64,000 nt of DNA from Dehalococcoidia bacterium (GCA_965205235.1 CBDBGD010000008.1:106629-170628), one strand, 5' to 3'; positions 2,842 through 38,113 are shown, counted from the stretch's first letter. Notes: generated from the sequence alone by a model not told the origin. Numbers and translations are program-made.

Positions 2842-2880
2842 CCGCAATGGGCCGTTACATTCCACTGTGAGGTGCTGAGA

Positions 2881-7358: not shown

Positions 7359-7464
7359 GGGAGACCTCCTCCGGGGGCTGGGTTGCCATGAGTGTAGTGG
7401 ATGGAACGGCCTCGTGGAAGGGTGGGGCGTGCTGATTCACCGATTGTGGAAGGGCTCCCCCGCC

Positions 7465-7494
7465 TTGACAGCGTACGTTCAGCATCGGTAGCAT
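7465..7494 (+). promoter_or_regulatory. Putative sigma70-type promoter of the formamidase gene
   Basis: TTGACA (7465-7470), 18-nt spacer, TAGCAT (7489-7494). It lies about 57 nt upstream of the GTG at 7551, which has an AGGAGA Shine-Dalgarno. Confidence 0.4.
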
Positions 7495-7550
7495 CGGGCC
7501 AATCCGTCAACACCCTTGCTATACCGCTGCGCAGTTCGAAAGGAGAAGCC

Positions 7551-9393: not shown

Positions 9394-9528
9394 GACGTGC
9401 TCCTGCCGATGGGGGTTGGAAGACGGGGCCATTGTTGACCAACGGTCAGTGTTCGTCAATCGCCATGGGGCCGCAGGCCGGTGCTGCGTAGCTTGTGGCG
9501 CCCAACTTCGCCATGCTACCATCCGGCG

Positions 9529-18733: not shown

Positions 18734-18735
18734 GC

Positions 18736-23332: not shown

Positions 23333-23358
23333 GCAGATAACGCAAGCAGGTCACGTTT

Positions 23359-23392
23359 CCCCAGCCCCGGCCCACCCGGGTCTGGGTTGGGG
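23359..23392 (+). terminator. GC-rich hairpin after SBP copy 1 (no U-tract)
   Basis: CCCCAGCCCCGG-cccac-CCGGGtcTGGGTTGGGG. A paralogous hairpin follows copy 2. Confidence 0.3.
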
Positions 23393-23596
23393 AGCGGTGA
23401 CCGCAGAAAGACGAAGCTAGGCATGGGCTCGCCGAGGGTGCACCAGCCCCCGGCGGGCCCATGTGCGTAACGCAGGGCCTCGACCTCTCCCCGGCGACCT
23501 CACCGCGGCCGCCTCGCACAGGCGTCTTCTCCGGCGCAACGAGAGGCGCTTCCCAAGAGAGCAGCTACTGTCGGCCATTTACGCGCGATAAAGGCC

Positions 23597-23699
23597 TTGA
23601 CAGCCCAGCAAGGGCTGTGCTTACATTGGGCAACTTATCGCCTGTGCGAAGGGTATACCTATGCCCAGGCGGGCCACAGTCCATCTGTGAGGAGGCGCT
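23597..23699 (+). promoter_or_regulatory. Promoter and conserved 5' leader of binding-protein gene copy 2
   Basis: TTGACAGCCCAGC...GCTTACATTGGGCAACTTATCGCCTGTGCGAAGGGTATACCTATGCCCAGGCG is nearly identical to copy 1. The enclosed palindrome here is GGTATACC. Confidence 0.45.
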
Positions 23700-25610
23700 A
23701 TGCGCAAGAGAGGCATGTGGAAGCTCGCTCCCTTTGCGGTAGTCGTTGCGCTGTTGCTGGCGGTTGCCTGCGGCGGCGGCGACGACGAGGAGACGAGCGC
23801 ATCCACCGGAACGACGACGTCTGGCACACAGACGCAAGCTGCGGCGCAGACGACGACAACGGAGTCGACATCGACGACGACGACGGCCGCGTCCACGACC
23901 GCGAGCACGTCGACGACGACGGCCCAGCCGTCGGAGACGTCGGCGGAGAAGGTCGCTGAGGCGGGCGCGACGCTGACGACGTTCGAGGTCGGCAAGGGCG
24001 GCGACGCGGTGATCAGCGTCAACCCGGACCAGGGCGAGCCCATCTTTGGTGGGACGATCAACCGCCGCTCCTTCTCGACGTTCAAGACCATCGACACATG
24101 GGTGTCGGACTTCGGCGGTGCGACGAGCACCATGTACGCGCAGATCCTGTACGAGGCGCTGCTGACGTACGACGCTCCCTTCGACCCGGAGAAGGGCGTG
24201 GTGCTGGTGCCGAACCTGGCCAAGGACTGGTCCTTCAGCGACGACGGCAGCCTGCTGACCCTGAACCTACGGGAAGGGGTCACATGGCACGACGGTACGC
24301 CGTTCACCAGCGCAGATGTTGCGGCGACGTTCAACCGCTGCCTGGATCCGGAGTTCACGGCATCGGGTGAGTCGGCGAACAAGTGCAAGGACCTGGTGCA
24401 GAGCGTGCAGGTGGTCGACGACCACACCATCGTGCTGGACCTGGGCGGCCCCTCCTACATCATCCTGCCGTGGCTGGCCAACCCGCAGATCTCCATAGTC
24501 GCGTCCCACATCCTTGAGCGTGACGGTCACACTCGGGACGCCGACATGGGGACCGGGCCCTACCTGTCCACCGAGAAGGACACCGAGACCGGTATGACCT
24601 TCGTCAAGAACCCCAACTACTGGGGCCTGGACGACTCCGGCCGGCAGCTTCCCTACATGGACGCCATGAACCGGCCGGTCATCGCCGAGAAGGCGACGGC
24701 GCTGGCGCTGATGCTGGCGGGGAACCTGGACACGTACGAGCACTGGCCGGTGATCGAGCAGATCGAGGCCGAGGGCATCAAGAACCAGCTTGGCGACAAG
24801 GTGGACGTCCGGCAGGTCAACCCCGGCGTCTGGCACAACATCATCTTTAACGCCGGCAAGCCGCCCTTCGACGATGAGCGGGTGCGGACGGCGATGAACT
24901 ACGCCATCGACCGGACACTGGCGACGCGAGCCGGCTACGGGGACCCGCCCTTCGGCGGCATCCCCGGACACATTCTGGACCCCCGGGACTTTGGCGACTT
25001 CGCCCTGACCGATGCGGAGATCGGGGAGCTCCCCGGCTTCAACCCTGCCCGCAGGGCCGAGGACCTGGACAGGGCGCGGCAGCTGATGGCGGACGCCGGC
25101 TATGCCGACGGTATTGAACTGACCGAAGGCTTCATCGTCGCCCCCAGCCCCCGGGACGTCGACCTGATGGAGAACATCGCTGAGCAGATGGCTGAGATCG
25201 GTATCGAGGCCAACGTTGAGGTCATCGACTGGCCGGTGAAGGGTCCGCGGCAGCTGGACGGCTCGATGAACGTCTCGAAGAATGCTTGGGCGACCATCAT
25301 CGCCGACCCGCTTGGGGTGCTGGACCGTGTCTTCACCAAGTTCGGCCGGCCGAACAACTACACCTTCTGGGACACGTCCGAGTGGGACGAGTGGTGGCTC
25401 AAGCAGACCCGCACGCTGGACATGGAAGAGCGGCGAGCTGCGATCAAGGACGCCCAAAAGCGCTGGCTGACGGACGACGGGATCAGCAACATCACCATCC
25501 TATGGGCAACGAACAACGTGCCCTTCTACACGCACGTGAAGAACTACTTCCAGCCGGGCCCGACCTTCTACGGGAACTGGAGCTTCCGGCACGTCTGGCT
25601 GGACCGGTAG
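23700..25610 (+). CDS. ABC transporter substrate-binding lipoprotein, peptide/nickel (family 5) type, copy 2 (tandem paralog)
   Basis: 636 aa. Collinear with copy 1 and by eye identical at roughly nine residues in ten. Divergence is concentrated around residues 470-540. Confidence 0.88.
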   Translation: MRKRGMWKLAPFAVVVALLLAVACGGGDDEETSASTGTTTSGTQTQAAAQTTTTESTSTTTTAASTTASTSTTTAQPSETSAEKVAEAGATLTTFEVGKGGDAVISVNPDQGEPIFGGTINRRSFSTFKTIDTWVSDFGGATSTMYAQILYEALLTYDAPFDPEKGVVLVPNLAKDWSFSDDGSLLTLNLREGVTWHDGTPFTSADVAATFNRCLDPEFTASGESANKCKDLVQSVQVVDDHTIVLDLGGPSYIILPWLANPQISIVASHILERDGHTRDADMGTGPYLSTEKDTETGMTFVKNPNYWGLDDSGRQLPYMDAMNRPVIAEKATALALMLAGNLDTYEHWPVIEQIEAEGIKNQLGDKVDVRQVNPGVWHNIIFNAGKPPFDDERVRTAMNYAIDRTLATRAGYGDPPFGGIPGHILDPRDFGDFALTDAEIGELPGFNPARRAEDLDRARQLMADAGYADGIELTEGFIVAPSPRDVDLMENIAEQMAEIGIEANVEVIDWPVKGPRQLDGSMNVSKNAWATIIADPLGVLDRVFTKFGRPNNYTFWDTSEWDEWWLKQTRTLDMEERRAAIKDAQKRWLTDDGISNITILWATNNVPFYTHVKNYFQPGPTFYGNWSFRHVWLDR

Positions 25611-25636
25611 GCAGATAACGCAAGCAGGCCGCGTTT

Positions 25637-25670
25637 CCCCAGCCCCAGCCCACAGGGGCCGGGGCTGGGG
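25637..25670 (+). terminator. GC-rich hairpin after SBP copy 2 (no U-tract)
   Basis: CCCCAGCCCC(25637-46)...GGGGCTGGGG(25661-70), a perfect 10-bp stem. Confidence 0.3.
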
Positions 25671-25790
25671 AGCGAGGCCGTGGAAACAGCAAGCTAGGCA
25701 TGGGCTCGCGTTGGGCGCCCCCGCCCCTGGCGGGCCCATAGCTATAGCATGAGAACCTGACCCCGTAGACGGGAACCAAGAGGGTGTCAT

Positions 25791-26768
25791 ATGTCTGGGA
25801 CTGGGATGCGGAAGTACATAATCAACCGCCTCCTCGTGGTGCCTGTTACCCTCTTGATTGCATCCCTCTTCATCTTTGGCGTTCTCAGGACGATCCCCGG
25901 CGATCCCATTGCGGCCCTTTTCGCGGAGGACTCCTTCTTCGGCGGAGCCAACGAGCGGCGCCTCCAGATGCAGATGCGAGAGGAGGTTGGCCTGGCCGAG
26001 CCAATCCACATCCAGTACTACGATTGGTGGGCCAACCTACTCAAGGGCAACTTCGGCCAGTCCTTCGCCTACCGCAAGCCCGCGATCGACGTGCTGAAGG
26101 ACCGCTTGCCACCCTCGTTTGCGATCATGGGCATTGGCCTGGTGACCGGAGTGGTCGTTGGGCTGCCTGCGGGCATCCTCTCCGCGGTCAGACGAAACTC
26201 GTGGCTGGACTACCTGGTCCGGGGTATCGTGGTGGCCGGCTTAAGCATGCCTTCCTTCGTGACCGCTGCTGTCGTCATGGTAGGCCTCATCTGGGCCTTC
26301 AAGTGGCTGCCTCCCGCGCGCTTTGTCCCGCTCCACGAAGACCCCATCGAAAGTCTCAAGACACTCCTCTTCCCCGGCCTCATCGTCGGATACTCGATGG
26401 CCGCGGGCTTGGCGCGCGTCTCTCGGACCCAGTTCCTAGAGGTCATCCGCGAGGACTACATTCGCACCGCGTGGGCCAAGGGGCTGCGGGAGCGGGCCGT
26501 GGTCTTCCGGCACGCCCTGAGGAACAGTCTGCTGCCCGTGATAACGCTGCTGGGGGTCTACGTGGCCCAGCTCATTGCCGGTGCGGTGGTAGTGGAGACC
26601 ATGTTCAACATCCCCGGCCTGGGCCAGGGGCTGGTCCGGACCGTACTCTTCCGAGACTATGCCGTCATCCAGCTCTTTGTCATATCCGTGACGCTGCTGG
26701 TGCTGGGCATCAACCTCTTTGTCGACCTTCTCTACAGCTGGATTGACCCGCGCGTCCGCTACGAATAG
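25791..26768 (+). CDS. ABC transporter permease (DppB/OppB-like)
   Basis: 325 aa. N-terminus MRKYIINRLLVVPVTLL. Multiple TM helices. EAA-like loop ...YIRTAWAKGLRERAVVFRHALRNSLLPVIT. Confidence 0.88.
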   Translation: MSGTGMRKYIINRLLVVPVTLLIASLFIFGVLRTIPGDPIAALFAEDSFFGGANERRLQMQMREEVGLAEPIHIQYYDWWANLLKGNFGQSFAYRKPAIDVLKDRLPPSFAIMGIGLVTGVVVGLPAGILSAVRRNSWLDYLVRGIVVAGLSMPSFVTAAVVMVGLIWAFKWLPPARFVPLHEDPIESLKTLLFPGLIVGYSMAAGLARVSRTQFLEVIREDYIRTAWAKGLRERAVVFRHALRNSLLPVITLLGVYVAQLIAGAVVVETMFNIPGLGQGLVRTVLFRDYAVIQLFVISVTLLVLGINLFVDLLYSWIDPRVRYE

Positions 26769-26786
26769 AGGACAGGGAAAGGACAG

Positions 26787-27704
26787 ATGGCAACACGCGA
26801 AGGCGAGGAGCTAGCAAGCGTACTGCGGGCGCCTCCCGGCATGACAGAGCGCTGGCAGCGGGGCGCAAAGATCGTTCTGCGGCACGCTCGCACGAATCTC
26901 CTCGGGAGCTTCTCGGCGGTGGTTATCGCGGTGCTGATTATCGTCGCCATAGCTGCTCCCGTCCTTGCGCCATACGACTACAGCGAGCGGAACCTGGACC
27001 GCCGGTACGACCCTCCGAGCTCCGATCACTTCTTCGGCACGGACCGCCAAGGCCGCGACATGTTGAGCCGCATCATGCAGGGCTCGCGGATCTCCCTGAG
27101 GGTGGGGATCTTCAGCGTTGCGAGCGGGGTAACCATAGCGCTGCTCATCGCGCTGACGTCGGGGTACATCGGCGGCATATTCGACAACGCCGTACAGCGC
27201 GTGGTCGACACGCTCCTGGCCTTTCCAGGCCTGGTGGTCGCTCTCTTCCTTGTCGCGGTCTTTACCCCATCGCAGAACACGGTGATAGGCGCGCTCGCCT
27301 TCACTTTCATCGCGCCCGCGAGCCGGCCTCTTCGCGCGCAAGTCATCTCCGTCAGAAGCAACGTCTACGTCGAGGCAGCTCGTGCCATTGGCTGCTCCAA
27401 CGTTCGAGTCATGGCCCGCCACATTCTGCCCAACGTGATGCCGCTCTACGTGGTGGTGGTGAGCCTGTTCCTGGGCGGCGCTATCATCGTCGAGTCCTCG
27501 CTGACGTTCCTGGGCGTGGGCGTTGACCCCACGACGCCATCGTGGGGACGGATGGTGACGGACGGCACGACGAGCCTGTTCCTGGCGGGGGCGTACCTGA
27601 CGATCTTCCCGTCCCTGGCCATTGCGGTCACGGTCTTTGCCTTCAACATGCTGGGGGACACGCTGCGGGACATCTGGGACCCGCGGCTTCGCGGCTCGCA
27701 GTAG
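26787..27704 (+). CDS. ABC transporter permease (DppC/OppC-like)
   Basis: 305 aa. PPSSDHFFGTDRQGRDMLSRIMQG is the typical OppC N-domain. YVEAARAIGCSNVRVMARHILPN is the EAA loop. Confidence 0.88.
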   Translation: MATREGEELASVLRAPPGMTERWQRGAKIVLRHARTNLLGSFSAVVIAVLIIVAIAAPVLAPYDYSERNLDRRYDPPSSDHFFGTDRQGRDMLSRIMQGSRISLRVGIFSVASGVTIALLIALTSGYIGGIFDNAVQRVVDTLLAFPGLVVALFLVAVFTPSQNTVIGALAFTFIAPASRPLRAQVISVRSNVYVEAARAIGCSNVRVMARHILPNVMPLYVVVVSLFLGGAIIVESSLTFLGVGVDPTTPSWGRMVTDGTTSLFLAGAYLTIFPSLAIAVTVFAFNMLGDTLRDIWDPRLRGSQ

Positions 27705-27727: not shown

Positions 27728-27766
27728 ACAGGGGAGGAGGCAACCGCCTCCTCCCCTGTTTCTTTC
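27728..27766. terminator. Bidirectional rho-independent terminator between convergent operons
   Basis: Perfect 14-bp stem ACAGGGGAGGAGGC-aacc-GCCTCCTCCCCTGT, followed by TTCTTTC on the plus strand and by GCTTTTCC on the minus strand. Confidence 0.8.
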
Positions 27767-27791: not shown

Positions 27792-28475
27792 CTACGCCGT
27801 CTGCTTCGCCGCCGCCCAGGTGGTGATGAGCTCCTCCGACATGGGGCTGTCGTAGCGGTCGAGGAGGAGCTTGACGCCCAGGTCGTGCTTCTCATGGTTG
27901 CTCATGGTGATGCAGTCCTGGGCCATGAGCACGTAGTAGTCGTGGGCGTAGGCGCCGATGGCCGTCTCGAGCACGCAGCCGGTGGTGGCGGTGCCGGTGA
28001 CGACGACGCTCTCAATGCCGTTGGAGCGCAGGACCTGGTCCAAGCGCGTGGCCCAGAAGGCGCCGTTGCGGTTCTTCCGCACGATGATGTCGCCGGACTG
28101 GGGCGCGAGCTCCGGGATGGTCTCGTGGCCCCAGGTGTCCTCTACGCAGACCTGCAGCGGCATCTTGTTCCTGCCGCCGGTGGGGCGCTCCCGGTACCAG
28201 TAGTGGATGTAGGCCGGGGCCACGGTGGCCAGGCTCTTCTCCACCACGTACTGGATGTAGATGATGGGCACCTTGGCCGCGCGGGCCGCGTCGAGCAGCA
28301 CGCGGAGAGGCTCGATGATGCGCCGGTTGCCTGCGATGTTCTCGCCGCCCTTCGACAGCAGCCCCTCCGGGTCGCAGAGGTCGTTCTGCATGTCGACGAC
28401 GATGACGGCGGTGTGCGCCGGGTCCGCAAGCTCGTCCAGGGTGTCATAGACCGAGTGGCCGAGAATCTCCTTCAC
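27792..28475 (-). CDS. Isochorismatase-family cysteine hydrolase, paralog 1 of 4
   Basis: 227 aa. TAVIVVDMQNDL (Asp), IIVRKNRNGAF (Lys), VVVTGTATTGCVLETA (Cys). GTG start with AAGGAGAAGG Shine-Dalgarno. Confidence 0.85.
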   Translation of the reverse strand: MKEILGHSVYDTLDELADPAHTAVIVVDMQNDLCDPEGLLSKGGENIAGNRRIIEPLRVLLDAARAAKVPIIYIQYVVEKSLATVAPAYIHYWYRERPTGGRNKMPLQVCVEDTWGHETIPELAPQSGDIIVRKNRNGAFWATRLDQVLRSNGIESVVVTGTATTGCVLETAIGAYAHDYYVLMAQDCITMSNHEKHDLGVKLLLDRYDSPMSEELITTWAAAKQTA

Positions 28476-28522
28476 GTTCCTTCTCCTTTCGTCAGGGCGG
28501 CTCTAGAGCGCCCGTTGGGAAA

Positions 28523-29188
28523 CTAGGACCAGAGTCCCACCAGCTCGTCCGAGGTCACGCTCACGTAGCGGTCGACCAGGACGGCCAGGCCCTTCTGATG
28601 GCGCTCCTGGTTCGTCTCTGCGACGCCGTCGGTGAGGACGGCGGTGTAGTAGTCGTAGGCGTGGGCGCCGACGGCCGTGTCGAGGACGCAGCCGGCGGTG
28701 GCGGTGCCCGTCACGACGACGCTTTCGATGCCGTGGCCGCGCAGGGCCTTGTCCAGGTTGGTGGCCCAGAAGCCGCCGCGCCGGGTCTTCTCGATGATGA
28801 AGTCCTCCGGCTCGGGGGCCAGCTCCGGCACCACCTCCCAGCCCCAGCTCTTGTCGAAGAGCGCGTCCAGGGCCACCGTCGGCGTCTCCGGGTCGACGTT
28901 GCCGTTGTAGCAGGAGTGGATCCACGCCGGGGCCATGGCCGAGCGCAGGTCGTCCTGGGTGTAGACGATGTAGACGATGCGCACGCCCGCCTGTCGCCCC
29001 GCCTCGATGGTCCGACGGAGCGGCTCCAGGATCTCCAGCTTGGGGCCAACGTCGTGGCCGCGCTTGGCGGACCACCCGTCAGGCGACACCAGGTCGTTCT
29101 GCATGTCGACAACCAGGATGGCCGTCTGCTCGGGTCGCAGTATCTCCTCTGTGGTCTGATAGACCGGCTTTCCGTGCACCTCAATCAT
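28523..29188 (-). CDS. Isochorismatase-family cysteine hydrolase, paralog 2 of 4
   Basis: 221 aa. TAILVVDMQNDL, FIIEKTRRGGF, VVVTGTATAGCVLDTA. GAGGAGG Shine-Dalgarno. Confidence 0.85.
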   Translation of the reverse strand: MIEVHGKPVYQTTEEILRPEQTAILVVDMQNDLVSPDGWSAKRGHDVGPKLEILEPLRRTIEAGRQAGVRIVYIVYTQDDLRSAMAPAWIHSCYNGNVDPETPTVALDALFDKSWGWEVVPELAPEPEDFIIEKTRRGGFWATNLDKALRGHGIESVVVTGTATAGCVLDTAVGAHAYDYYTAVLTDGVAETNQERHQKGLAVLVDRYVSVTSDELVGLWS

Positions 29189-29224
29189 GGGCTCCTCCTC
29201 GCAGTTGTGTTCGTCGTATCGTAT

Positions 29225-29923
29225 CTACGCCGCCACCGGCCTCGCCGCTGAAGCCCAGCAGGTGACGAGGTCCTCGGCGGACGGCCCGAGGTAGCGCTGC
29301 GCCAAAAAGGCCATGCCGAGCTCGTGGCCCGTGGGGTCGTTGGTCGCCACGCAATCCTTGGCGTAGACGGTGTAGTAGTCGTTGCCGGCGGCGCCGACGG
29401 CGGTGTCGAGCACGCAGCCGTGGGTGGCGGTGCCGGTGATGACCACCGTGTCGATGCCGTTGCCGCGCAGCACCTTGTCCAGGTTGGTGCCCCAGAAGCC
29501 GCCCATGTTGTTCTTCAGAACGCAGACGTCGCCCGGCTCGGGGGCCAGCTCCGGGATGACCTCCCAGCCCCAGGTGCCCTCGAAGCAGGCCTCCATCTCG
29601 ACGCGGTAGGACCGCTTGCGCTCGCCCATGTACTCCAGCACGCCGCCCTGGTGGACCCACGCGGGCGTTGCGAGCCGGTGGCCCTTGTCCATGGTGTACT
29701 GGATGTAGACGATCATCACACCGGCCTGCCGGGCGGCGTTGATGACGGTGCGAATGGGCTCGATGATGCGGCGGTTGGCGCCGATGTCCTCGCCGACCTT
29801 GTCCAGGAAGCCGTCGGGGGAGACCAGGTCGTTCTGCATGTCGACGACGATGACCGCGGTGTGCGACGGGTCCAGAAGCTCCTCGAAGGAATCGTAGATC
29901 GGGGTATCGAAGTCTATCCTCAT
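29225..29923 (-). CDS. Isochorismatase-family cysteine hydrolase, paralog 3 of 4
   Basis: 232 aa. TAVIVVDMQNDL, VCVLKNNMGGF, VVITGTATHGCVLDTA. GAGGAGG Shine-Dalgarno. Confidence 0.85.
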   Translation of the reverse strand: MRIDFDTPIYDSFEELLDPSHTAVIVVDMQNDLVSPDGFLDKVGEDIGANRRIIEPIRTVINAARQAGVMIVYIQYTMDKGHRLATPAWVHQGGVLEYMGERKRSYRVEMEACFEGTWGWEVIPELAPEPGDVCVLKNNMGGFWGTNLDKVLRGNGIDTVVITGTATHGCVLDTAVGAAGNDYYTVYAKDCVATNDPTGHELGMAFLAQRYLGPSAEDLVTCWASAARPVAA

Positions 29924-29971
29924 GCCCTACCTCCTCAACGTTGTGCTGTGTATCGAGCCGGCGGGTCGACC

Positions 29972-30301
29972 CTAGCCGGCGTCCTTCTCGACGACGACCG
30001 CAGTGCCGTACGCGAGTATCTCCGACGCGCCCGACATGACTGCGGACGTCGTATACCTGACGCCGACGACGGCGTTTGCGCCGAGCGCATTCGCCGCGTC
30101 GATCATGATGCCGGTGGCCTCGGCGCGTGCGGCGGCTAGGAGCTGCGAGTACTCGGGCACGTCGCCGCCCTTGATGCCGCGGAGCCCGGCGGTGATGTCC
30201 CGACCGATGCCGCGCGTCCTGACGGCGTTGCCCTGCACCAGCCCCTTCACCTCCACCACGCGCACACCGGGCACCGTGTCCGTCGTCGCAAGAAGCGTCA
30301 C
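29972..30301 (-). CDS. YbjQ/UPF0145 family protein
   Basis: About 109 aa from GTG 30301. VEVKGLVQGNAVRTRGIGRDITAGLRGIKGGDVPEYSQLLAAARAEA...ANAVVGVRY matches the YbjQ pattern. The GTG overlaps the upstream TGA (GTGA). The ORF track's longer start would overlap paralog 4 by 49 nt. Confidence 0.75.
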   Translation of the reverse strand: MTLLATTDTVPGVRVVEVKGLVQGNAVRTRGIGRDITAGLRGIKGGDVPEYSQLLAAARAEATGIMIDAANALGANAVVGVRYTTSAVMSGASEILAYGTAVVVEKDAG

Positions 30302-31017
30302 GCCGATGCCTCTTCGCCTGCGCCGTTGCCGTCGGCGGCCGCCCACAGGGCGAGCAGCTCCTCGGACGACGGCCCGTCGTAGCGGGCGGCGAGCAGCTTC
30401 ATCCCCACCTCGTGGGTCTTGGGGTTCATGGTGGTCACGCAGTCCCGGACGTAGACGGTGTAGTAGTCGTTGGCCGCTGCGCCGACGGCCGTGTCGAAGA
30501 CGCAGCCGGACGTGGCGGTGCCCGTCACGACCACGGTCTCGATGCCGTTGCCGCGCAGGATCTTGTCCAGGTTGGTGTCCCAGAAGCCGCCCAGGTGGTG
30601 CTTCTGCACCAGGATGTCGCCCTCCTCCGGCGCCAGCTCCTCGATCACCTCCCAGCCCCAGGTGCCCTCGAACAGGCCCTCAAGGCTGGAGATGCCCTTC
30701 TTGGCGGGCGAGAGGAGCGTGCCACTGAACAGCCGGATACCGTTGTACACCCACGCGGGCGTTACCGTGGGCAGCCCCGGATGGATGGTGTACATGATGT
30801 AGATCACGGGGATGCTCGCCTCGCGGGCGCCCTGCAGCAGCACGCGCAGGTCGCCGATGATGCGCCTGTTGCCCTCCAGTTCAGCGCCGTTGCGGTCGGC
30901 GAGGCCGCCGGGCGCGACGAGGTCGTTCTGCATGTCGACCACGACCACCGCCGTGTGCGACGGATCGACCACCTCCGCCAGCGAGTCGTAGACCAGTTTG
31001 CCGTAGGCTTCCTTCAT
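30298..31017 (-). CDS. Isochorismatase-family cysteine hydrolase, paralog 4 of 4
   Basis: 239 aa. TAVVVVDMQNDL, ILVQKHHLGGF, VVVTGTATSGCVFDTA. GGAGGAGGG Shine-Dalgarno. Confidence 0.85.
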   Translation of the reverse strand: MKEAYGKLVYDSLAEVVDPSHTAVVVVDMQNDLVAPGGLADRNGAELEGNRRIIGDLRVLLQGAREASIPVIYIMYTIHPGLPTVTPAWVYNGIRLFSGTLLSPAKKGISSLEGLFEGTWGWEVIEELAPEEGDILVQKHHLGGFWDTNLDKILRGNGIETVVVTGTATSGCVFDTAVGAAANDYYTVYVRDCVTTMNPKTHEVGMKLLAARYDGPSSEELLALWAAADGNGAGEEASA

Positions 31018-31035
31018 ACGCCCTCCTCCCGCTCG

Positions 31036-32949
31036 TCAGTCTCCCAGGAACTTGGCGACGTGGGCGGCGGCGCGGCGCAGCGCGTCGGCCACCGTCTCGG
31101 GTCGCCAGTCGTACCAGCCGTGGTGCTCGCAGTTGTACTGGATGAACTCCACGTACTTCCCCTTGGCTTTGGCCTGGCGGAAGTAGTCCTGGGCCATGCT
31201 AATGCGCACGCCGTCGCGGTCGCCCCAGAGGAACAGCAGCGGCGTGACGATGTTGTCGAGGTTGTAGACGGGGGAGCGCTCCATCCAGTGGTCGAGGGCG
31301 ATGTCCGGGCCGCCGTAGTCGCCGCCGACGACGTCGCCGAGGGTGGACCTGCCGGCGGCGGAGCCGTAGCGCTCCATGTGAACGAGGTCCGGCGGGCCGT
31401 AGAAGTTGATGGCAGCCTTGATGAGGTCCGGGTAGCGGGAGATGGTCTGGTTGGTGAAGTAGCCGCCCGTGCTCCCGCCGTGCATGGCCACCCTGGCCGG
31501 GTCGATGAGGCCCTGGCTCGCCAGGTGCTCCACGCCGGCCGCGATGTCGTCGACGTCGCCGCCGCCCCAGTCGCCGAAGTTCATGGTCTCGTAGACCTTG
31601 CCCAGGCCGCCGCTGCCTCGCACCTCGGGCGCGAGGACGGTGTAGCCCTTGCTGCACCAGTACTGGATGAAGGGGTAGAAACCGTTGACGTGGAAGCCGT
31701 GGATGTTGGCCCGGGCGAAGATGACCAGCGGCGTCGCGCCCGTCGCGCTCGGCGGCCTGTACAGCCACGCAGGCACCTCCAGCCCGTCCTTGGACGCGTA
31801 GCGGATGAGCGTGGGCTCGACGAACGCGCTGCGGTCCAGGTCCTTGGGCATGTGGTCGGTGATCTGTCGAGGCGCGCCGCCGCTGACCGGGATGGCCCAC
31901 AGGTCGCTGCAGGTCTGGTAGTCCGCGTGGGTGTAGACGATCTCCTTGCCGTCGGGCGTCCAGGCCAGGGAGCCGCGGACCTGGCTGCCCTCGTAGCCGC
32001 CGTTGATGCCGTCGCCCTGGGTGAGCTGGATGGGCTCGCCGCTGCCGTCGGCGGCGACCAGCATGATATGGAAGTTCCAGCTCTTGCTGGCCGTGTAGGC
32101 GATCCACTTGCCGTCCGGGGAGAAGTAGGGGTTGTTCTCGTCCCACTCGCTGGTGGTGAGCATGGTGGTCTCGCCGGTGGCGACGTCGATGACGCCGATG
32201 TTGCGCCACCCCGTGCGGTCCGAGACGAAGGCGATGCGCGTGCCGTCGGGCGACCATCGGGGGTGCGAGTCGTGGTGGTCCTTGGTGTTGGGCGTCAGGT
32301 TGCGAGCGGGGCCGCCCGAGATGGGGGCGATGAAGACGTCCATGCGCTTGTTGTCGGCATAGCCGCTGCGGTCCGACTGGAAGGCCACCCACTGGCCGTC
32401 GGGCGAGAGCTGGACGTTGGTGTTGTTCCACTCGTCGTTGGTGATGAGGCGAGGCCGGATCTTGCCCGTGGGGATCTCCGTGGGCAGGGCCTTGACCTGG
32501 CTGTGCCCGGTGGGGCCGCCGCCGGTGAAGACTACCTCACTGCCGTCGGGCGTCCATCGAGTCCACTCGTTGTAGCGGCCGGGGCTGTTGTCGTAGGTGA
32601 TGTTGTAGGGGGCCTCCGTGCCGTCGGCGCGGACGATGTAGAGGTTGCCGGTGGGCGAGGAGTAGCGGGCCCCGTAGGAGATCCACTCGCCGTCGGGCGA
32701 CCAGGAGGGGACGAGGCACTGCTCCGGGTACATGTGCACGATGCAGCGGTTGTTGGAGCCGTCGATGTCGACGACCCACAGGTCGTAGCCGCCGCTCTCG
32801 GCGGAGACGTAGGCGATGCGGGAGCCGTCGGGGGAGATGGCGAAGTCCTCCACCTTGGCGTTGGTGCGTGCCAGCGCGTCGATGAGGGGATCGTCGGGGA
32901 GCACGGGGGGTTCGGGGAACGTGGCGCCGCGGTTGTAGTGCGCAGCCAT
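31036..32949 (-). CDS. S9 family serine peptidase with TolB-like beta-propeller
   Basis: 637 aa. Six blades (WSPDGEWISY, WTPDGSEVVF, LSPDGQWVAF, WSPDGTRIAF, FSPDGKWIAY, WTPDGKEIVY). Hydrolase domain with HGGSTGGYF and GDRDGVRIS. Confidence 0.88.
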   Translation of the reverse strand: MAAHYNRGATFPEPPVLPDDPLIDALARTNAKVEDFAISPDGSRIAYVSAESGGYDLWVVDIDGSNNRCIVHMYPEQCLVPSWSPDGEWISYGARYSSPTGNLYIVRADGTEAPYNITYDNSPGRYNEWTRWTPDGSEVVFTGGGPTGHSQVKALPTEIPTGKIRPRLITNDEWNNTNVQLSPDGQWVAFQSDRSGYADNKRMDVFIAPISGGPARNLTPNTKDHHDSHPRWSPDGTRIAFVSDRTGWRNIGVIDVATGETTMLTTSEWDENNPYFSPDGKWIAYTASKSWNFHIMLVAADGSGEPIQLTQGDGINGGYEGSQVRGSLAWTPDGKEIVYTHADYQTCSDLWAIPVSGGAPRQITDHMPKDLDRSAFVEPTLIRYASKDGLEVPAWLYRPPSATGATPLVIFARANIHGFHVNGFYPFIQYWCSKGYTVLAPEVRGSGGLGKVYETMNFGDWGGGDVDDIAAGVEHLASQGLIDPARVAMHGGSTGGYFTNQTISRYPDLIKAAINFYGPPDLVHMERYGSAAGRSTLGDVVGGDYGGPDIALDHWMERSPVYNLDNIVTPLLFLWGDRDGVRISMAQDYFRQAKAKGKYVEFIQYNCEHHGWYDWRPETVADALRRAAAHVAKFLGD

Positions 32950-33061
32950 GTAACGCCTCCACTCGGGCGGGTACCCTGGGGTGGGGCCATTCTAGGTAGG
33001 CGGTGGGGGTTTGGTCAAGCGTAGGGGGAGTGGGGGGTGAAGGTCGGCGTTCCGACGCACG

Positions 33062-34204
33062 CTATTGCAAAGCGCCCAACTCTCGCACAACCTTCTCCAA
33101 CCGCTCCACCATCACGTCAACGTGCGGCGCCAGTTTATTGTACGACGCGCTCCAGCCTCGCCTGTCTTTCTCAACCTTGTTCATGGAGTCGCCCTCGAAA
33201 CTCGCTATGTACCGCCGAAGTACGGCCAGAACCATTTCGTCGGGTGAGGGGGTGTAGGTGGAGACCGCCTCGCCGAAATGGGCATCGTTCAGTTCTTCGC
33301 CCACCCAACCGCCCTGTGCACCTGGAGGCGTTAGTATGGCGACGGTAATCGGGTTCCTCCCCCATCGGGGGCACTTAGCGCGAATGCTGACACTGGTGCT
33401 GCCCCAGTTGAGCGTCGCGCCGGCGGCCACGGCACCATCCAGGAGGCGCTCTGCTACTTTGCGGTCAGTCGCATTGGTGAATGCGCTGAAGAACGACTCT
33501 CGCGTGTAGTTGGGGGTGCGTGGATTCGGCTTCCTGTCGCCCGCAATTCTGCCCATCACCCTCGGGACCAAAGTCTGTCCTCCATGGCCCCTGAACTGCT
33601 TGATCTCCACCGCAAGCACTTCGATGGCCGGCATTGCTCGGTTCAGGAATTCGATGACGCGCAGGAGCTCGTCCGGGACCTTGTCGGCGACGAACAGCAG
33701 CCGCATATGACGTGCATCAAGGTTTCGGGCGACCTCCTGGAAGAAGGACTCCATGTCGACCTCATCGGTCTGCAGGAGGGTTGCTAAGCGCGCCGCGGAG
33801 TCGTCGCCTACCTCTTCACATTGGGCCTCAAAGCGCTCGCGCATCACGTCGGCCGTCCAAGTCTCCGACGCGTAGGCCGCGTACTCTAACAACTGGCCGA
33901 CAACAGTGCGACGGATCTCTGTATTGGCGCTGCGCTTGCACTCCACGAGTGTCGGAATGCGGTCCTGGTCCACAAGCAGGAGATCAAGGGACCAGCGGGT
34001 CGATTCTTCCGGCTTTTCGGCAATGCCCATTTCACGTGAGATGACGAGCCATCGCCTGGGGTCTTGGGGCCGCACCTGCTCACCAGCCAACAATTCGGGG
34101 TGGTTTGCGAGCAACTTTTGGAGATCGTCTTCCGTTGAGAAGCGCTCCTCTTCCAAAGGCTCCAGTTTTCCACCGTCGCCTCTGAGGTAGATGCGCTCGG
34201 CCAT
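33062..34204 (-). CDS. PD-(D/E)xK (NucS/DUF91-like) nuclease-domain protein of unknown function
   Basis: 380 aa from ATG 34204. N-terminal LEPLEEERFSTEDDLQKLLANHPELL, then the core WSLDLLLVDQDRIPTLVECKR (D...ExK), then GQLLEYAAYA and LLFVADKVPDELLRVIEFLNRAM..IEVLAVEIKQF. Two hand-counted 100-nt samples gave 59-60% GC, against 68% in the next gene. The rest of the 755-aa ORF is antisense to the next gene. Confidence 0.6.
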   Translation of the reverse strand: MAERIYLRGDGGKLEPLEEERFSTEDDLQKLLANHPELLAGEQVRPQDPRRWLVISREMGIAEKPEESTRWSLDLLLVDQDRIPTLVECKRSANTEIRRTVVGQLLEYAAYASETWTADVMRERFEAQCEEVGDDSAARLATLLQTDEVDMESFFQEVARNLDARHMRLLFVADKVPDELLRVIEFLNRAMPAIEVLAVEIKQFRGHGGQTLVPRVMGRIAGDRKPNPRTPNYTRESFFSAFTNATDRKVAERLLDGAVAAGATLNWGSTSVSIRAKCPRWGRNPITVAILTPPGAQGGWVGEELNDAHFGEAVSTYTPSPDEMVLAVLRRYIASFEGDSMNKVEKDRRGWSASYNKLAPHVDVMVERLEKVVRELGALQ

Positions 34205-34245
34205 GTCAGGACTCCCGGTTGGATTCGCGGGGTGGGCGGGCGCGG

Positions 34246-35373
34246 CTACGCGATAAACCCGTAGAGGCGGCCGGCGTTCTCGCAGATGAGCTTGCGGCGC
34301 TTGTTCTCCGGCAGGCCTCCCAGGTTGCGCTCGATGACCGACTGGGACTCGGGCCAGACGGAGTCCGGGTGGGGGTAGTCGGATCCCCAGATGACGCGGT
34401 CCTCGCCCACCAGCTCCAGCACCGTCGCGACGGATTGCTCGTCCTGGTACGTCGAGTGGCCGTGCTCGTGCCAGAACTCGCTGGGCTTGCGGTCCAGGTC
34501 CGTGGCGAAGTCGCCGCGCTTCTCGGCGAACGCGGCGTCGAGTCGCTCCAGCGCGAAGGGGATCCACGAGATGCCGCACTCGCCCAGGACGAAGCGGAAG
34601 TCCGGGTAGCGCTGGCAGGCGCCGGAGAGGAGGATGCTGCCCAGCGCCTCTATCCCGCCCATCTGGAACATCGCGTTTCGGAGGTTCTCGTGCTGGGGCT
34701 TGTAGGTCTCGACGTCGTCGCCCACCAGCTCGCGGGGCCTGAGGCCCAGGCTGTGGAAGGAGACCGGCATGCCGCACTCGGCAGCTGCGGCCCACAGCGG
34801 CTCCCAGTCGCGGTGGTAGAGTGGCTTGGCCGTGAGCGGCAGGTCGGCGCCCTTGAGGCCCAGTCGGGCTGCGAGGCGCAGGTCCTCTGCGGCGGCGTCC
34901 GCGTCGTGGATGACCAGCGGCGCCAGGGCGGCCCACCGGCCGGGGTAGGAGGCGCAGAAGCCGGCGGCCCACTCGTAGTACACCCGGTACATGTAGCGGA
35001 GCAGCTCCGGGTCCTGGAACTGCAGGTGCGTGCCCGACAGGCCGTAGATGACCTCCGCCTCCACGCCGTCGCGCTGCATGTCGCGCAGGCGGAGGTGCGG
35101 CGTGGTGGGGTGCAGGCCCTCCTCGTAGAACCCGGCGTCGGACATGGCCGAGATGCGACGGGAGCGCTCCTTCACCGCTGGGTTGAAGGAGAAGGCCAGG
35201 CCGCCCTGGATGCCGAGCTGCCTGCCCTCCGCCCACCATCGGGGGCCGACGTTGGTGTCGACGACGCGGGGGGCGGTGTCGCGGAAGCGCGGCGGGGCGT
35301 TGTCGATCCAGAGGTCGCCGGGCATCCACGTCATGTCGACGTGGGAGTCGCCGGAGATGACCTGGTACTCCAT
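34246..35373 (-). CDS. Amidohydrolase-2 family protein
   Basis: 375 aa from ATG 35373 (GAGGG Shine-Dalgarno). MEYQVISGDSHVDMTW is the typical opening. IWGSDYPHPDS near the C-terminus. Confidence 0.8.
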   Translation of the reverse strand: MEYQVISGDSHVDMTWMPGDLWIDNAPPRFRDTAPRVVDTNVGPRWWAEGRQLGIQGGLAFSFNPAVKERSRRISAMSDAGFYEEGLHPTTPHLRLRDMQRDGVEAEVIYGLSGTHLQFQDPELLRYMYRVYYEWAAGFCASYPGRWAALAPLVIHDADAAAEDLRLAARLGLKGADLPLTAKPLYHRDWEPLWAAAAECGMPVSFHSLGLRPRELVGDDVETYKPQHENLRNAMFQMGGIEALGSILLSGACQRYPDFRFVLGECGISWIPFALERLDAAFAEKRGDFATDLDRKPSEFWHEHGHSTYQDEQSVATVLELVGEDRVIWGSDYPHPDSVWPESQSVIERNLGGLPENKRRKLICENAGRLYGFIA

Positions 35374-35530: not shown

Positions 35531-36727
35531 CTACGTGATGCGGTCTCCGTAGAGGCGGATGGCATTGTCCCAGAGGATCTTCTGCTTGGCCTCGTCGGAG
35601 ATGGGCTGCTCCAGGAGTCCGTCCAGGGCCTTGTCGGGGTCCGGGGCGTCCGGGTGCGGGTAGTCCGTGTTCCAGACCACGTGGTCGCCCCAGCCCAAGG
35701 CCACGACGGCCGGCAGCGCGCCCTCGTCGCCGTCGCACGCCACGAAGCCCTGGCGTCGGATGTACTCGCTGGGCGTCAGAGGCAGCAGCGGCGCATCGAA
35801 CCACATGCCCTGCCGACGGCTCTCCATGGCGTGGTCGTCCAGGCGGCTCACCCACCAGGGGAGCCAGCCGGCGTTGCCCTCCAGGAAGGAGACGCGCATC
35901 TTCGGGAACCGCTCCAGCACGCCCATGTAGATCATGTGGCCCATCGACAGCATGTTCTCGAAGGGGAAGCCTGCGGCGTGGTCCAGGGCCACCTGCTGGC
36001 CCGGCACTGCGTGGCGTGGCTGGTATCGGGCGGCGGTGTGCGACTCGCCGCTGCTGGCGCCGTGGAAGGACATGGGGAAGTCCAACTCCTCCGCCAGGGC
36101 CCAGAACGGGTCGTAGGCGGGGTCGTGCCACTGGGTCCCTTGGTTCGCCATCATCATCAGCACGGTCACGTGGTTGAGCTCCGCGACGGAGCGGCGGGTC
36201 TCCGCCACCAACCCTTCGACGTCGTGCTGGTTGGGCATGGCCGCCACGGCGTACAGCCGTTTGGGGTCGGCGTCGCAGAACTGGCGGGCCCAAGTGTTGT
36301 AGGCGCGGACGAGAGCCCAGAGGTAGCCCTGGTCGCGGCCCTGCACCTTGATGAAGGGCAGCGATCCCAGGTCCGGGATGCAGACCTGCTTGTCCCAGCC
36401 GTAGCGGTCCATGTCCTGCAGGCGGCTCTCCGCGCTCCACTCTGCCGGGAACGCGTCCGGGTACTTGGCGGGCATCATCTCGCGCAGGTTCAGCCGGGTG
36501 CGGCGGCGATTCGAGCCGCCCTGGAGGGACGTCGTTCGAGGAGCGGCGTCGGGGAGCAGCTCCGAAGGCAGCCACTCCGCAATCCGCGGCCCCATGCCGA
36601 ACTGGTCCTCCGTGACGTGGATGCGAGGACGCCGGTCGTAGTACTCGGGCTCCACCATGTCGACCCAGCTTGCGAGCCGGTCCTGCATGTGGGCGTCAGC
36701 GTCGATGACCTTGAAGCCGTTCTTCAC
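35531..36727 (-). CDS. Amidohydrolase-2 family protein, paralog of 11406..12608
   Basis: 398 aa. MKNGFKVIDADAHMQD...WNTDYPHPDAP. Collinear with the 400-aa copy, with most residues identical by eye. Confidence 0.8.
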   Translation of the reverse strand: MKNGFKVIDADAHMQDRLASWVDMVEPEYYDRRPRIHVTEDQFGMGPRIAEWLPSELLPDAAPRTTSLQGGSNRRRTRLNLREMMPAKYPDAFPAEWSAESRLQDMDRYGWDKQVCIPDLGSLPFIKVQGRDQGYLWALVRAYNTWARQFCDADPKRLYAVAAMPNQHDVEGLVAETRRSVAELNHVTVLMMMANQGTQWHDPAYDPFWALAEELDFPMSFHGASSGESHTAARYQPRHAVPGQQVALDHAAGFPFENMLSMGHMIYMGVLERFPKMRVSFLEGNAGWLPWWVSRLDDHAMESRRQGMWFDAPLLPLTPSEYIRRQGFVACDGDEGALPAVVALGWGDHVVWNTDYPHPDAPDPDKALDGLLEQPISDEAKQKILWDNAIRLYGDRIT

Positions 36728-36754: not shown

Positions 36755-38113
36755 CTACGAGGCCGCTTGCGCTCCGCCGAGCAGTCTCGTGATCTCGCGA
36801 ACGTCGTCGAGCTTGTCGAGGCGCTCCACCTGCTCCAGCACGGCCTGGGCCCGGGCTGCGCCGAGCACGGGGACTGCGAGCACCAGGAACTTCCGGTGCA
36901 GACGCTCCCGCGGCGCCGGGTTGGCCGCGTCGCCCCAGATTGCGCCGGCGGTCGACACCAGCTCGCGGCCGTCGGTCAGGCGCACCGACACGCGCGCCGT
37001 GTCGCCGTCGTCCCGCCGCATCGACATGGTCGCGTCCATGCTCACCTGCACCTTGCCCGCAAGCTCCCGCGCCCGCTGTGAATCGATGGCCTGGGGGCGG
37101 AAGGCGCCGGTGCCGGTCTCGCCGTGGACCAGGGCCGCAGCCACAGCGTAGGGGATGGAGAACCTGGCGGCAAGTGGGTTCTCCGGGTAGGCGCCGACCA
37201 TGCCCGCGGGGAAGGGCACCGTGGTCACGTGCACCTGGTCTATCTCCTCGGGAGCGATCTCGTGCCGCCCGCGCAGGGCGTGGACGGCGTCGAGGGTGGG
37301 GTGGTTGTAGCGGCAGCAGGCGTGGAACTTGAAGTAGTTCTGCTCGATGCGGTAGCCGGCGCCGAGACCCTCCACCACGGCGTCGGGGTCGAAGGCGTCG
37401 CCCAGGATAACGCCGTAGACGTCGGCGGGGCCGTCGGCCAGGGCGGTGAAGCCGCACGCGTGGAGGTGCGTCGCCAGGATGCCCTGCAGGGAGGAGCGTC
37501 CGGGGTACAGGTTGCGCACGGTGGCGCCCTCGAAGCAGGGCGTCCAGGTGTTGGCGGGGCTCATGGACGCGGCCATGCTGATGACCGAGCGAATCGAGGG
37601 GGCGTCGAGGCCCTTGAGCCGCGCGACGGCGGCCGCGGTGCCGGGCGCGCCCCAGTGGCCGTGCGAGTGGACGTTGTGTCGAGGCTTGGTCGCGCCGCCA
37701 AGTCGAGAGGTCACCTCGTAGCCGGCGACCAGTGCGCCGAGCACCTCCGATCCCCCGGCCCCCGACTCCTCCGCGGCCGCGAGCAGGCCCGGCAGGACGT
37801 GGATGGCCGGATGGCCGCCGCCGTAGCGATTGCCCTCGTCGACCTCCAGGGCCACTCCGGCGGTGGCGTTGACCAGGGACGCGAGGAGGGGGTCGGCCTT
37901 CAGATCGTGGCCGATGAGCGTAGCGCCGGGCGTTCCCGGCGCGTGGGCCACCTGCCGCGCCAGCGATGCGTTCTCCGGGAGCGCGCTGCCCGCCACCATC
38001 GCCCCGACGGTGTCCAGGAACACGTCCTTGGCCGCGAGGACGGTATCGGTCGGCAGCTGTGCGCTATCCGTCCCGGCTACGTACTCGGCCAGCGCGTCCA
38101 GGTAGTGGGCCAC
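36755..38113 (-). CDS. MmgE/PrpD family protein
   Basis: 452 aa. N-terminal LAEYVAGTDSAQLPTDTVLAAKDVFLDTVGAMVAGS and central HPAIHVLP/HSHGHWG blocks are typical of the 2-methylcitrate-dehydratase superfamily. Confidence 0.8.
   Translation of the reverse strand: MAHYLDALAEYVAGTDSAQLPTDTVLAAKDVFLDTVGAMVAGSALPENASLARQVAHAPGTPGATLIGHDLKADPLLASLVNATAGVALEVDEGNRYGGGHPAIHVLPGLLAAAEESGAGGSEVLGALVAGYEVTSRLGGATKPRHNVHSHGHWGAPGTAAAVARLKGLDAPSIRSVISMAASMSPANTWTPCFEGATVRNLYPGRSSLQGILATHLHACGFTALADGPADVYGVILGDAFDPDAVVEGLGAGYRIEQNYFKFHACCRYNHPTLDAVHALRGRHEIAPEEIDQVHVTTVPFPAGMVGAYPENPLAARFSIPYAVAAALVHGETGTGAFRPQAIDSQRARELAGKVQVSMDATMSMRRDDGDTARVSVRLTDGRELVSTAGAIWGDAANPAPRERLHRKFLVLAVPVLGAARAQAVLEQVERLDKLDDVREITRLLGGAQAAS

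Follow-up and report, generated by a model that had tools for sequence, protein, structure and literature searches.

The stretch of DNA examined here, referred to below as the window, comprises 64,000 nucleotides (nt) of a Dehalococcoidia bacterium (GCA_965205235.1, CBDBGD010000008.1:106629-170628) and has a G+C content of 63-71%. The prolyl-tRNA synthetase encoded in the window is 63-68% identical to the enzymes of metagenome-assembled genomes assigned to Chloroflexota or Dehalococcoidia, in agreement with this origin, and a 329.5-kb contig holds an identical copy. On the minus strand of the window lie four tandem paralogs of the isochorismatase-like cysteine hydrolase family, named here iso1 to iso4, together with a gene of the YbjQ/UPF0145 family and a gene for a peptidase of family S9 (Table 1). 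A preliminary description of the locus had given the gene order as S9-iso4-YbjQ-iso3-iso2-iso1; this order and the gene coordinates are matched by the table of open reading frames (ORFs) and by the sequence. From S9 to iso1, the intergenic gaps measure 18, -4, 48, 36 and 47 nt. The negative value reflects the overlap, already pointed out in that description, between the GTG start codon of YbjQ and the TGA stop codon of iso4 (GTGA). As also claimed, a strong Shine-Dalgarno sequence precedes each of the four hydrolase genes (GGGAGGAGGG for iso4, GAGGAGG for iso3, GAGGAGGAG for iso2 and AAAGGAGAAGG for iso1); that of YbjQ, GAAGAGG, is weaker.

The array ends at a strong bidirectional terminator facing a peptide-type ATP-binding cassette (ABC) importer, and the hairpin and the convergent importer operon of the initial account were both found. 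The hairpin has a 14-bp stem with 10 G-C pairs, a TTCTTTCG tail and T-rich tails on both strands; its RNA folds at -40.5 kcal/mol (z = -4.9), and none of 200 shuffled sequences folds as well. At the other end, the promoter candidate preceding the S9 gene matches the sigma-70 consensus at 10 of 12 positions in a consensus scan not validated for the promoter types of Chloroflexota. A second promoter-like site, a consensus match only, precedes a D-hydantoinase homolog further upstream (39632-39604). With such sites before both the S9 and the hydantoinase genes, the whole looks like a catabolic island of two operons, of which the hydrolase region would form the downstream half. The functional unit extends beyond the limits originally set for it (27792-32949), since the D-hydantoinase homolog and two Amidohydro_2 genes are conserved with it. 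Scans of the cluster and its vicinity for Rfam families and for tRNAs gave no hits.

Table 1. Features of the hydrolase locus and its surroundings; positions are counted from the first nucleotide of the window.
Feature	Position	Strand	Product size	Remarks
S9 peptidase	31036-32949	minus	637 aa	PD40 beta-propeller + alpha/beta-hydrolase domain; first gene of the operon
iso4	30298-31017	minus	239 aa	PF00857 at 9e-39; pocket residue Leu
YbjQ/UPF0145	29972-30301	minus	109 aa	PF01906 at 4e-31; longest ORF reaches 30346
iso3	29225-29923	minus	232 aa	PF00857 at 3.6e-43; pocket residue Met
iso2	28523-29188	minus	221 aa	PF00857 at 1.5e-36; pocket residue Arg
iso1	27792-28475	minus	227 aa	PF00857 at 9e-42; pocket residue Asn
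Bidirectional intrinsic terminator hairpin	27728-27759	both		Common to hydrolase operon (minus) and importer operon (plus)
Sigma-70-like promoter candidate	32989-33018	minus		TTGACC-18-TAGAAT, ~40 nt upstream of S9 start codon
D-hydantoinase/dihydropyrimidinase homolog	38120-39538	minus	472 aa	Starts at internal ATG with GAAGGAGG Shine-Dalgarno; heads upstream operon
MmgE/PrpD-family gene	36755-38113	minus	452 aa	PF03972 + PF19305; window lineage only, absent from L091
Amidohydro_2 A (amh2A)	35531-36727	minus	398 aa	PF04909 at 9e-30
Amidohydro_2 B	34246-35373	minus	~375 aa	PF04909 at 1e-31; metal-dependent decarboxylase/hydrolase superfamily
Variable inserted gene	33062-34219	minus	385 aa	PADLOC PDC-S11 at 2e-13; resembles phage-defence candidate
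Peptide/opine-type ABC importer operon	21419-27704	plus		Convergent to hydrolase operon; ends at 27704
Two SBP_bac_5 lipoprotein genes	21419-23332, 23700-25610	plus		Pfam, NCBIfam
Two permeases	25791-26768, 26787-27704	plus		Pfam, NCBIfam

Four old and intact hydrolase paralogs

The four hydrolases score 127-148 bits on PF00857 against a cut-off of 27 (E 1e-36 to 4e-43). Judged by eye, they had been said to share roughly half their residues; pairwise identities measured 46-56% for the proteins, 63-69% for the DNA and 55-64% at third codon positions. Alignment confirmed that no catalytic residue was lost: the Asp (VVDMQND), the Lys and the Cys (TGTATxGCV) are present in all four proteins and in every aligned ortholog, in register with D24, K133 and C166 of RutB. 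Synonymous sites are saturated between the window and its counterpart in another contig (locus L091, described below); ratios of nonsynonymous to synonymous substitution rates (dN/dS) were taken from close relatives. They amount to 0.11 for iso1 (against locus L001), 0.06 for iso2, 0.11 for iso3 (against L089) and 0.10 for iso4, with values of 0.19 for YbjQ and 0.15 for S9. Thus, all four copies are intact and under purifying selection, in agreement with the suggestion that none is decaying, and the proposed check on the age of the duplications identified them as old paralogs and not recent duplicates. An exact-sequence look-up found no record identical to iso3.

By sequence profile, the nearest solved relative of these proteins is RutB (6e-40), followed by biuret hydrolase (BiuH) and 6xix, a cysteine hydrolase to which the Foldseek library gives the name TrtA. 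With matches of just 5e-19 to 6e-20 (72-75 bits), N-carbamoylsarcosine amidase (1nba, 26st) is much more distant than RutB and BiuH; the uncharacterised PDB entries 3kl2 and 3hb7 also rank among the nearest solved relatives. RutB and BiuH were likewise the best NCBIfam models for iso1 to iso4. The AlphaFold2 (AF2) model of iso3, the only one of the four that was modelled (pLDDT 92.4, pTM 0.91), has a Rossmann-like alpha/beta fold and superimposes on RutB, BiuH and TrtA with a Foldseek probability of 1.00, TM scores of 0.73-0.79 and 22-30% identity, ranking these relatives as the sequence profile does. Rhizobium loci considered as BiuH references were rejected, as they turned out to be RutB orthologs. 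To judge from these comparisons, iso1 to iso4 are members of one uncharacterised clade neighbouring the ureide hydrolases RutB, BiuH and TrtA, and not of four separately characterised subfamilies, the latter being the outcome that the preliminary description had regarded as fatal to its view.

The paralogs differ where substrate is likely to be bound. In RutB, Tyr29, Tyr35, Asn72 and Tyr136 are presumably the substrate contacts. Alignment with orthologs showed that the residues at the Tyr35 and Tyr136 positions are fixed within each iso orthogroup. Furthermore, a loop at residues ~78-112, which by analogy with RutB we take to be the substrate lid, varies in length and sequence among the paralogs and is conserved within each copy; it is also the lowest-confidence stretch of the iso3 AF2 model. 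As read from the alignments, then, iso1 to iso4 are old, non-redundant paralogs that differ from one another in their lid loops and in pocket residues fixed for each copy.

Tandem arrays recur in related Chloroflexota

As controls for the recurrence of the cluster we used 80 loci from diverse bacteria among the matches listed for the VVDMQN motif, for the most part RutB-type loci of Proteobacteria with identities of at most 43%. In this set, 78 loci have no second isochorismatase gene within +/-10 kb. By contrast with these 78, tandem arrays of two to six copies occur on related Chloroflexota contigs, some of them marine; this answers the question of recurrence raised by the preliminary description. 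Four copies in identical synteny occur at loci L001, L086, L089 and L090; three plus one copies are found in L091/L092, pairs in L087/L088 and in L093/L094, and five or six copies in L002-L004 and L095, among them a Tara Oceans marine contig. Two to three tandem copies were also present on all six short metagenome contigs with matches of at least 55% identity; metagenome contigs, mostly 1-8 kb long, are too short for neighbourhood statistics. In a neighbour-joining tree, all array members form one clade (96% bootstrap), apart from the single-copy homologs of Ktedonobacteria/Dormibacterota and from RutB. An apparent iso3-iso2 fusion in L089 (8543-9967, 474 aa) would have been Rosetta-stone evidence for a complex but was rejected as most likely an assembly error, the two frames being joined by a 1-nt frameshift just ahead of the stop codon of iso3; other genes are broken too in this long-read contig of 12x coverage.

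A diverged relative of the cluster is present in L091/L092, where the genes follow one another in the order hydantoinase, Amidohydro_2 A, Amidohydro_2 B, S9, three iso genes, an SBP_bac_5 gene, two permease genes and a fourth iso gene. The three adjacent hydrolases are, in order, orthologs of iso4 (70% identity), iso2 (75%) and iso1 (83%), with 99-100% bootstrap; the fourth belongs to a different subgroup. The neighbours are orthologous as well (hydantoinase 82%, Amidohydro_2 A 85%, Amidohydro_2 B 66%, S9 81%). The L091 cluster has no iso3 ortholog (the best match to iso3 there, 54%, is to the iso4 ortholog), no YbjQ and no PrpD gene.

Amidohydro_2 A is the neighbour that tracks the iso arrays across the most diverged loci. 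Its orthologs (52.6%) flank the six-copy arrays of L002 and L095, and strong matches to it (phmmer E 7e-136 and 5e-80) lie beside the iso genes of L005 and L099. A different association was found in L087/L088 (7807-13723), on a 2.28-Mb, possibly circular contig, where the iso pair lies between an SBP_bac_5 gene and the gene for a protein-arginine deiminase (PAD) homolog of 696-735 aa (PF03068). PAD makes the ureido group of citrulline, and the gene order at this locus suggests that these hydrolases are connected with ureido groups of the citrulline type. Finally, one paralog has Pro in place of the catalytic Cys (AGTTTDGPV/I) in L002 (4886-5593), L003 (2418-3125), L004 (2311-3018) and the independent JGI contig L096 (779-1510); it is otherwise well conserved and, from its sequence, may be a non-catalytic family member. 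Its ortholog in L095 keeps the Cys.

Genes conserved with the array

The D-hydantoinase homolog matches the D-hydantoinase 1yny at 1e-84. It scores 380.6 bits on TIGR02033, just under the cut-off of 393.25, and aligns with this model end to end. The nearest solved relatives of Amidohydro_2 A, all distant, are PtmU3, DitZ, LigW and ACMSD; those of Amidohydro_2 B are PtmU3, DitZ and LigW. That Amidohydro_2 A might be a decarboxylase, by analogy with TrtB of the triuret pathway, is only a thought. Judging by family assignments, the genes in the first 13 kb of the window, listed in the last section, would fit a region devoted to the release of nitrogen from amides.

The S9 protein scores 101 bits on PF00326 and 120 bits on PD40 repeats. 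GGSTGG (residues 491-496) is its sole nucleophile-type motif of the form G-x-S-x-GG; the other two triad residues, Asp and His, were assigned by visual inspection, and inspection of the N-terminus, also by eye, revealed no hydrophobic signal-like stretch. In the PDB, the protein comes closest to 8wt1, 5l8s (aminoacyl peptidase), 3azo and 5yzm (acyl-peptide hydrolase). The catalytic domain matches 5l8s, 5yzm, 7px8 and 1ve6 at 1e-13 to 2e-30, and matches to the aminopeptidase 3azo and to DPP4-type enzymes are comparable. The protein passes no NCBIfam model. By these sequence matches it appears closest to the acyl-peptide-hydrolase and aminopeptidase types, with no clear subfamily.

In the importer operon, the two SBP_bac_5 proteins are 87% identical, pointing to a recent tandem duplication, and have Thr/Ser-rich linkers after the lipobox. 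The operon lacks an ATPase gene, as does that of L091. Systems of the SBP_bac_5 type adjoin iso genes in the window, in L091 and in L087, and lie within a few kb of them in L094.

A putative route for nitrogen release from ureido compounds

We propose that iso1 to iso4 are substrate-specialised ureido/carbamoyl amidohydrolases working with the D-hydantoinase homolog, the S9 peptidase and the peptide-type importer, and that nitrogen is stripped by these enzymes from imported peptide-like or ureide compounds. We put the probability of this proposal at about one half. The lipoprotein-anchored importer would take up small peptide-like or ureide compounds. The S9 propeller peptidase, probably cytoplasmic, would cleave oligopeptide-sized substrates, as its family membership suggests, and the hydantoinase homolog, given its close homology to characterised enzymes, would open cyclic ureides to yield N-carbamoyl (ureido) acids. 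The Asp-Lys-Cys triad of the iso proteins would then attack the terminal amide of ureido, carbamoyl or related small amide groups; a thioester would form, with release of ammonia and, subsequently, of CO2 from carbamate, the chemistry of RutB, BiuH, TrtA and N-carbamoylsarcosine amidase. Within one class of substrates, each hydrolase most likely handles a compound of its own or one of the successive products of degradation, acting as a homo-oligomer; TrtA and BiuH offer a precedent. What the sequences show is the gene content, the intact catalytic residues, the purifying selection, the placement in the family, the recurrence and the synteny, whereas the class of substrates, the order in which compounds pass through the enzymes and the state of oligomerisation are inferred.

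The preliminary description had offered two options for the fourfold array, a hetero-oligomeric enzyme and a graded substrate series. The second fits better, since the pocket residue (Asn, Arg, Met or Leu) is fixed in each orthogroup and the lid loop differs among copies. Moreover, enzymes generating ureido groups are found in two independent contexts, the hydantoinase in the window lineage and in L091 and the PAD homolog in L087/L088.

Several observations weigh against the proposed function. On the RutB equivalog model TIGR03614 the hydrolases score 101-122 bits, with a cut-off of 377.95, and on the BiuH equivalog NF050097 93-107 bits, with a cut-off of 370. Scores of ~100 bits against cut-offs of 370-378 define them as superfamily members near the ureide-hydrolase group that are neither RutB nor BiuH. 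In the alignment with RutB, Tyr29 is replaced by Leu and Asn72 by Tyr, while iso1 to iso4 have, in this order, Leu, Trp, Phe and Leu at the Tyr35 position and Asn, Arg, Met and Leu at the Tyr136 position. The latter position was equated with Lys145 of BiuH by motif spacing (K142-x-x-K145 versus K-x-x-Y in RutB), a comparison made by eye with no BiuH sequence aligned. Lys145 is essential for biuret binding in BiuH (PMC5806882), and Lys is absent from the position so assigned in all four proteins. With the RutB contacts and the BiuH lysine missing and the equivalog cut-offs failed, the ureido assignment rests on the proximity of the clade and on the neighbouring genes. The neighbours in turn call for caution. 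The six-copy arrays of L002 and L095 are accompanied by neither hydantoinase nor S9 genes and lie in the context of an HpcH aldolase, an SDR, an MFS transporter and an RraA-like gene, so the peptide or hydantoin link is not universal. A gene for an M20-family peptidase, the family of the classical L-carbamoylases, stands divergent to the hydantoinase gene in L091 (2595-3944, minus strand) and could encode the real carbamoylase; the window has no M20 counterpart there, the hydantoinase gene being followed by the PrpD-family gene instead. The transporter has diverged much further than the enzymes when the window is compared with L091: identities are 38-40% for the SBP_bac_5 proteins, which are not orthologous, and 52% for the permeases, but 66-85% for the enzymes. 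Lastly, these genomes are rich in hydrolases, and some of the gene adjacency may therefore be incidental.

Many of these points would favour an alternative that we regard as unlikely, though it is the one that best survives: that the iso proteins act on non-ureido substrates, such as other small amides, esters, vinyl ethers or peptide-linked groups, and that their neighbours make up a loosely related, hydrolase-rich island. The isochorismatase superfamily is chemically broad, with nicotinamidase, maleamate amidase and isochorismatase among the weaker PDB matches; neither the RutB contacts nor a lysine at the position assigned to BiuH Lys145 are kept, the context of the six-copy arrays is of organic-acid type, and the window holds many other hydrolases. 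However, the closest characterised relatives, whether by profile, curated model or structure, are ureide and carbamoyl hydrolases. The hydantoinase and PAD homologs supply ureido groups in two separate settings, and the synteny with hydantoinase and S9 outlasts the saturation of synonymous divergence.

Alternatively, the paralogs might form one hetero-oligomeric enzyme, as mixed dimers or tetramers with active sites built from two different subunits, and with YbjQ as a possible accessory subunit in the window lineage. This model we hold to be rather improbable. In its favour, the active site of BiuH is completed by Gln215 of the adjacent monomer, so that mixed subunits would create new pockets (PMC5806882). 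An Arg210 that is invariant in the iso clade lies near the Gln215 region, local alignments ending before that helix; in an 11-sequence alignment of the iso subgroup, both His200 and Arg210 of the C-terminal helix are invariant. The iso4-iso2-iso1 order has been kept between the window and L091 despite saturated synonymous sites, the genes are tightly spaced (gaps of 18 to 48 nt) with YbjQ overlapping iso4, and the conserved Cys-to-Pro copy of L002-L004 and L096 would suit a non-catalytic partner. Yet the composition of the array varies by lineage (two, three plus one, four, or five to six copies, with iso3 and YbjQ present or absent), which is unusual for an obligate complex, and each copy in the window has a full triad and a strong ribosome-binding site of its own. 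We know of no heteromeric member of the isochorismatase-like family; BiuH is a homotetramer (PMC5806882) and TrtA a homodimer (PMC7948467).

As for a recent amplification into redundant isozymes serving gene dosage, or an array with decaying copies, the tandem, same-strand arrangement of genes of similar length and the recently duplicated SBP_bac_5 pair nearby might bring it to mind, but the divergence of the copies at the protein level and at third codon positions, the separate L091 orthologs of iso1, iso2 and iso4, the low dN/dS values and the differences in pocket residues refute it as far as sequence analysis goes, and we give it practically no weight.

If iso1 to iso4 are indeed specialised ureido/carbamoyl amidohydrolases, the arrays mark a route for the recovery of nitrogen from peptide-like or ureide compounds by uncultured Chloroflexota, some of them from marine samples; its amidases would make up a new, expanded clade akin to RutB and BiuH. 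With a different fixed pocket residue in each, the four to six natural variants would provide a ready series for studying the evolution of specificity, and the iso proteins would be candidate decarbamoylase biocatalysts to pair with hydantoinases. A bolder version, which we consider a long shot, would have the arrays constitute a stepwise or heteromeric "ureido-stripping" system of marine Dehalococcoidia. Here the paralogs, among them the Cys-less ones of related arrays, would jointly release carbamoyl/ureido nitrogen from cyclic ureides and from peptides bearing carbamoyl or citrulline groups in dissolved organic nitrogen, and would thereby also carry out the orphan citrullinase-type reaction; in one lineage, YbjQ would be a further subunit with an accessory or regulatory role.

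Relation to known systems

The closest known design is that of triuret degradation, in which trtA is clustered with biuH and the two paralogs act in succession; a decarboxylase and further amidohydrolases also take part (PMC7948467; PMC12625717). The TrtA/BiuH pair of Herbaspirillum and of nitrifier genomes resembles the array in fold, in its Asp-Lys-Cys mechanism and in the adjacency of the paralogs. The iso proteins, however, are only 22-27% identical to TrtA and BiuH by structure-based alignment and come in three to six copies instead of two. AtzF and AtzD are lacking, and the partners are S9, hydantoinase, Amidohydro_2 and peptide-type importer genes. RutB provides the best match in both sequence and structure (TM 0.76-0.77, ~30% identity), with the triad aligned. 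Unlike the iso genes, RutB-type loci elsewhere are single-copy among the matches listed, and Pfam scans of the annotated window ORFs revealed no other gene types of the Rut pathway.

A third parallel is with the hydantoinase-carbamoylase and creatinine routes, where a cyclic amidohydrolase is likewise clustered with potential carbamoyl-removing hydrolases, N-carbamoylsarcosine amidase being of the same superfamily. Those routes use one such enzyme in place of four paralogs, and neither a racemase nor an ATP-dependent N-methylhydantoinase accompanies the array; classical carbamoylases are nitrilase-type or M20 enzymes. The contigs also recall the paralog expansions of catabolic families in marine SAR202/Dehalococcoidia, in that they are Chloroflexota contigs with diverged hydrolase paralogs and many Amidohydro_2 and MmgE/PrpD genes.

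The initial statement that the arrangement was not recognised as a described pathway held good: no paper describing the cluster was found in the searchable literature, nor anything linking SAR202/Chloroflexi to isochorismatase arrays or reporting isochorismatase-hydantoinase clusters. Thus, the operon is real, recurrent and undescribed in that literature, and its enzymology extends a known family and a known design, that of clustered paralogous ureide hydrolases.

YbjQ is a lineage-specific companion

The YbjQ protein scores 108 bits on PF01906 (cut-off 23), covering positions 2-103 of the 103-position profile, and matches the PDB entries 1y2i, 2gtc and 1vr4 at ~1e-10 (five chains deposited per entry). 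Gene prediction gives a product of the same 109 aa in L001, L089 and L090, and one of 100 aa in L086. Neither L091/L092 nor any of the other loci compared beyond the window lineage yielded a homolog of YbjQ; hence, among these loci, YbjQ adjoins the hydrolases in the window's own lineage only. The preliminary description had presented YbjQ as embedded in the array; it did not prove to be an integral part of it. Both YbjQ and iso3 are missing from the syntenic L091/L092 cluster, whose order is S9-iso4-iso2-iso1, and the two genes are thus an indel between iso4 and iso2, which the gene orders leave to be read as a gain in the window lineage or as a loss in that of L091. This result weakens the case for YbjQ as an integral member of the pathway, and the gene is best treated as a lineage-specific passenger or accessory that the conserved core does not need.

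Homologs of YbjQ at 60-70% identity are common in Chloroflexota, and none of the literature found reports a function for the family. In a clade with 69% identity (L124-L127, 5771-7244), YbjQ is convergent to a gene for a distant, 245-aa isochorismatase-family protein located beside groES/groEL; this protein is 25-28% identical to iso1-4. In a clade with 63% identity (L128-L130, 5747-6324), no isochorismatase-family gene lies nearby. In both, YbjQ is preceded by a small ORF of 69-85 aa, either overlapping it by 4 nt or ~20 nt upstream, which by eye resembles a two-helix membrane protein. An isochorismatase-family gene therefore adjoins YbjQ in two of the three Chloroflexota YbjQ clades examined, one small clue to its role.

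Other features of the window

The 385-aa gene upstream of S9 has no Pfam or NCBIfam match; a PD-(D/E)xK-like "D...ECK" motif was noted by eye. The gene is absent from L091 and replaced by other genes in L089, marking the spot as a variable insertion site outside the conserved pathway. A 755-aa ORF on the same strand (33062-35329) was rejected as a high-GC read-through, the genuine Amidohydro_2 gene in this stretch using a different frame. Overlap between genuine genes and long spurious ORFs is a feature of this high-GC sequence, and a 740-aa gene called at the corresponding position in L001 may be the same artefact.

Further genes for amide- or peptide-cleaving enzymes are found between positions 40 and 12608 of the window. 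These include a second S9 peptidase (40-1614), a creatinase/prolidase-type M24 protein (2872-4011), an Amidohydro_1 protein (5808-7358), a formamidase/acetamidase (7401-8660), a DAO-family oxidase (9481-10716) and a third Amidohydro_2 protein (11406-12608). On the minus strand (16241-19485), next to proS, lies a gene whose 830-aa product combines AMP-binding, carrier-protein and acyltransferase domains, and after it comes one for a protein of the metallo-beta-lactamase fold; this pair is unrelated to the array.

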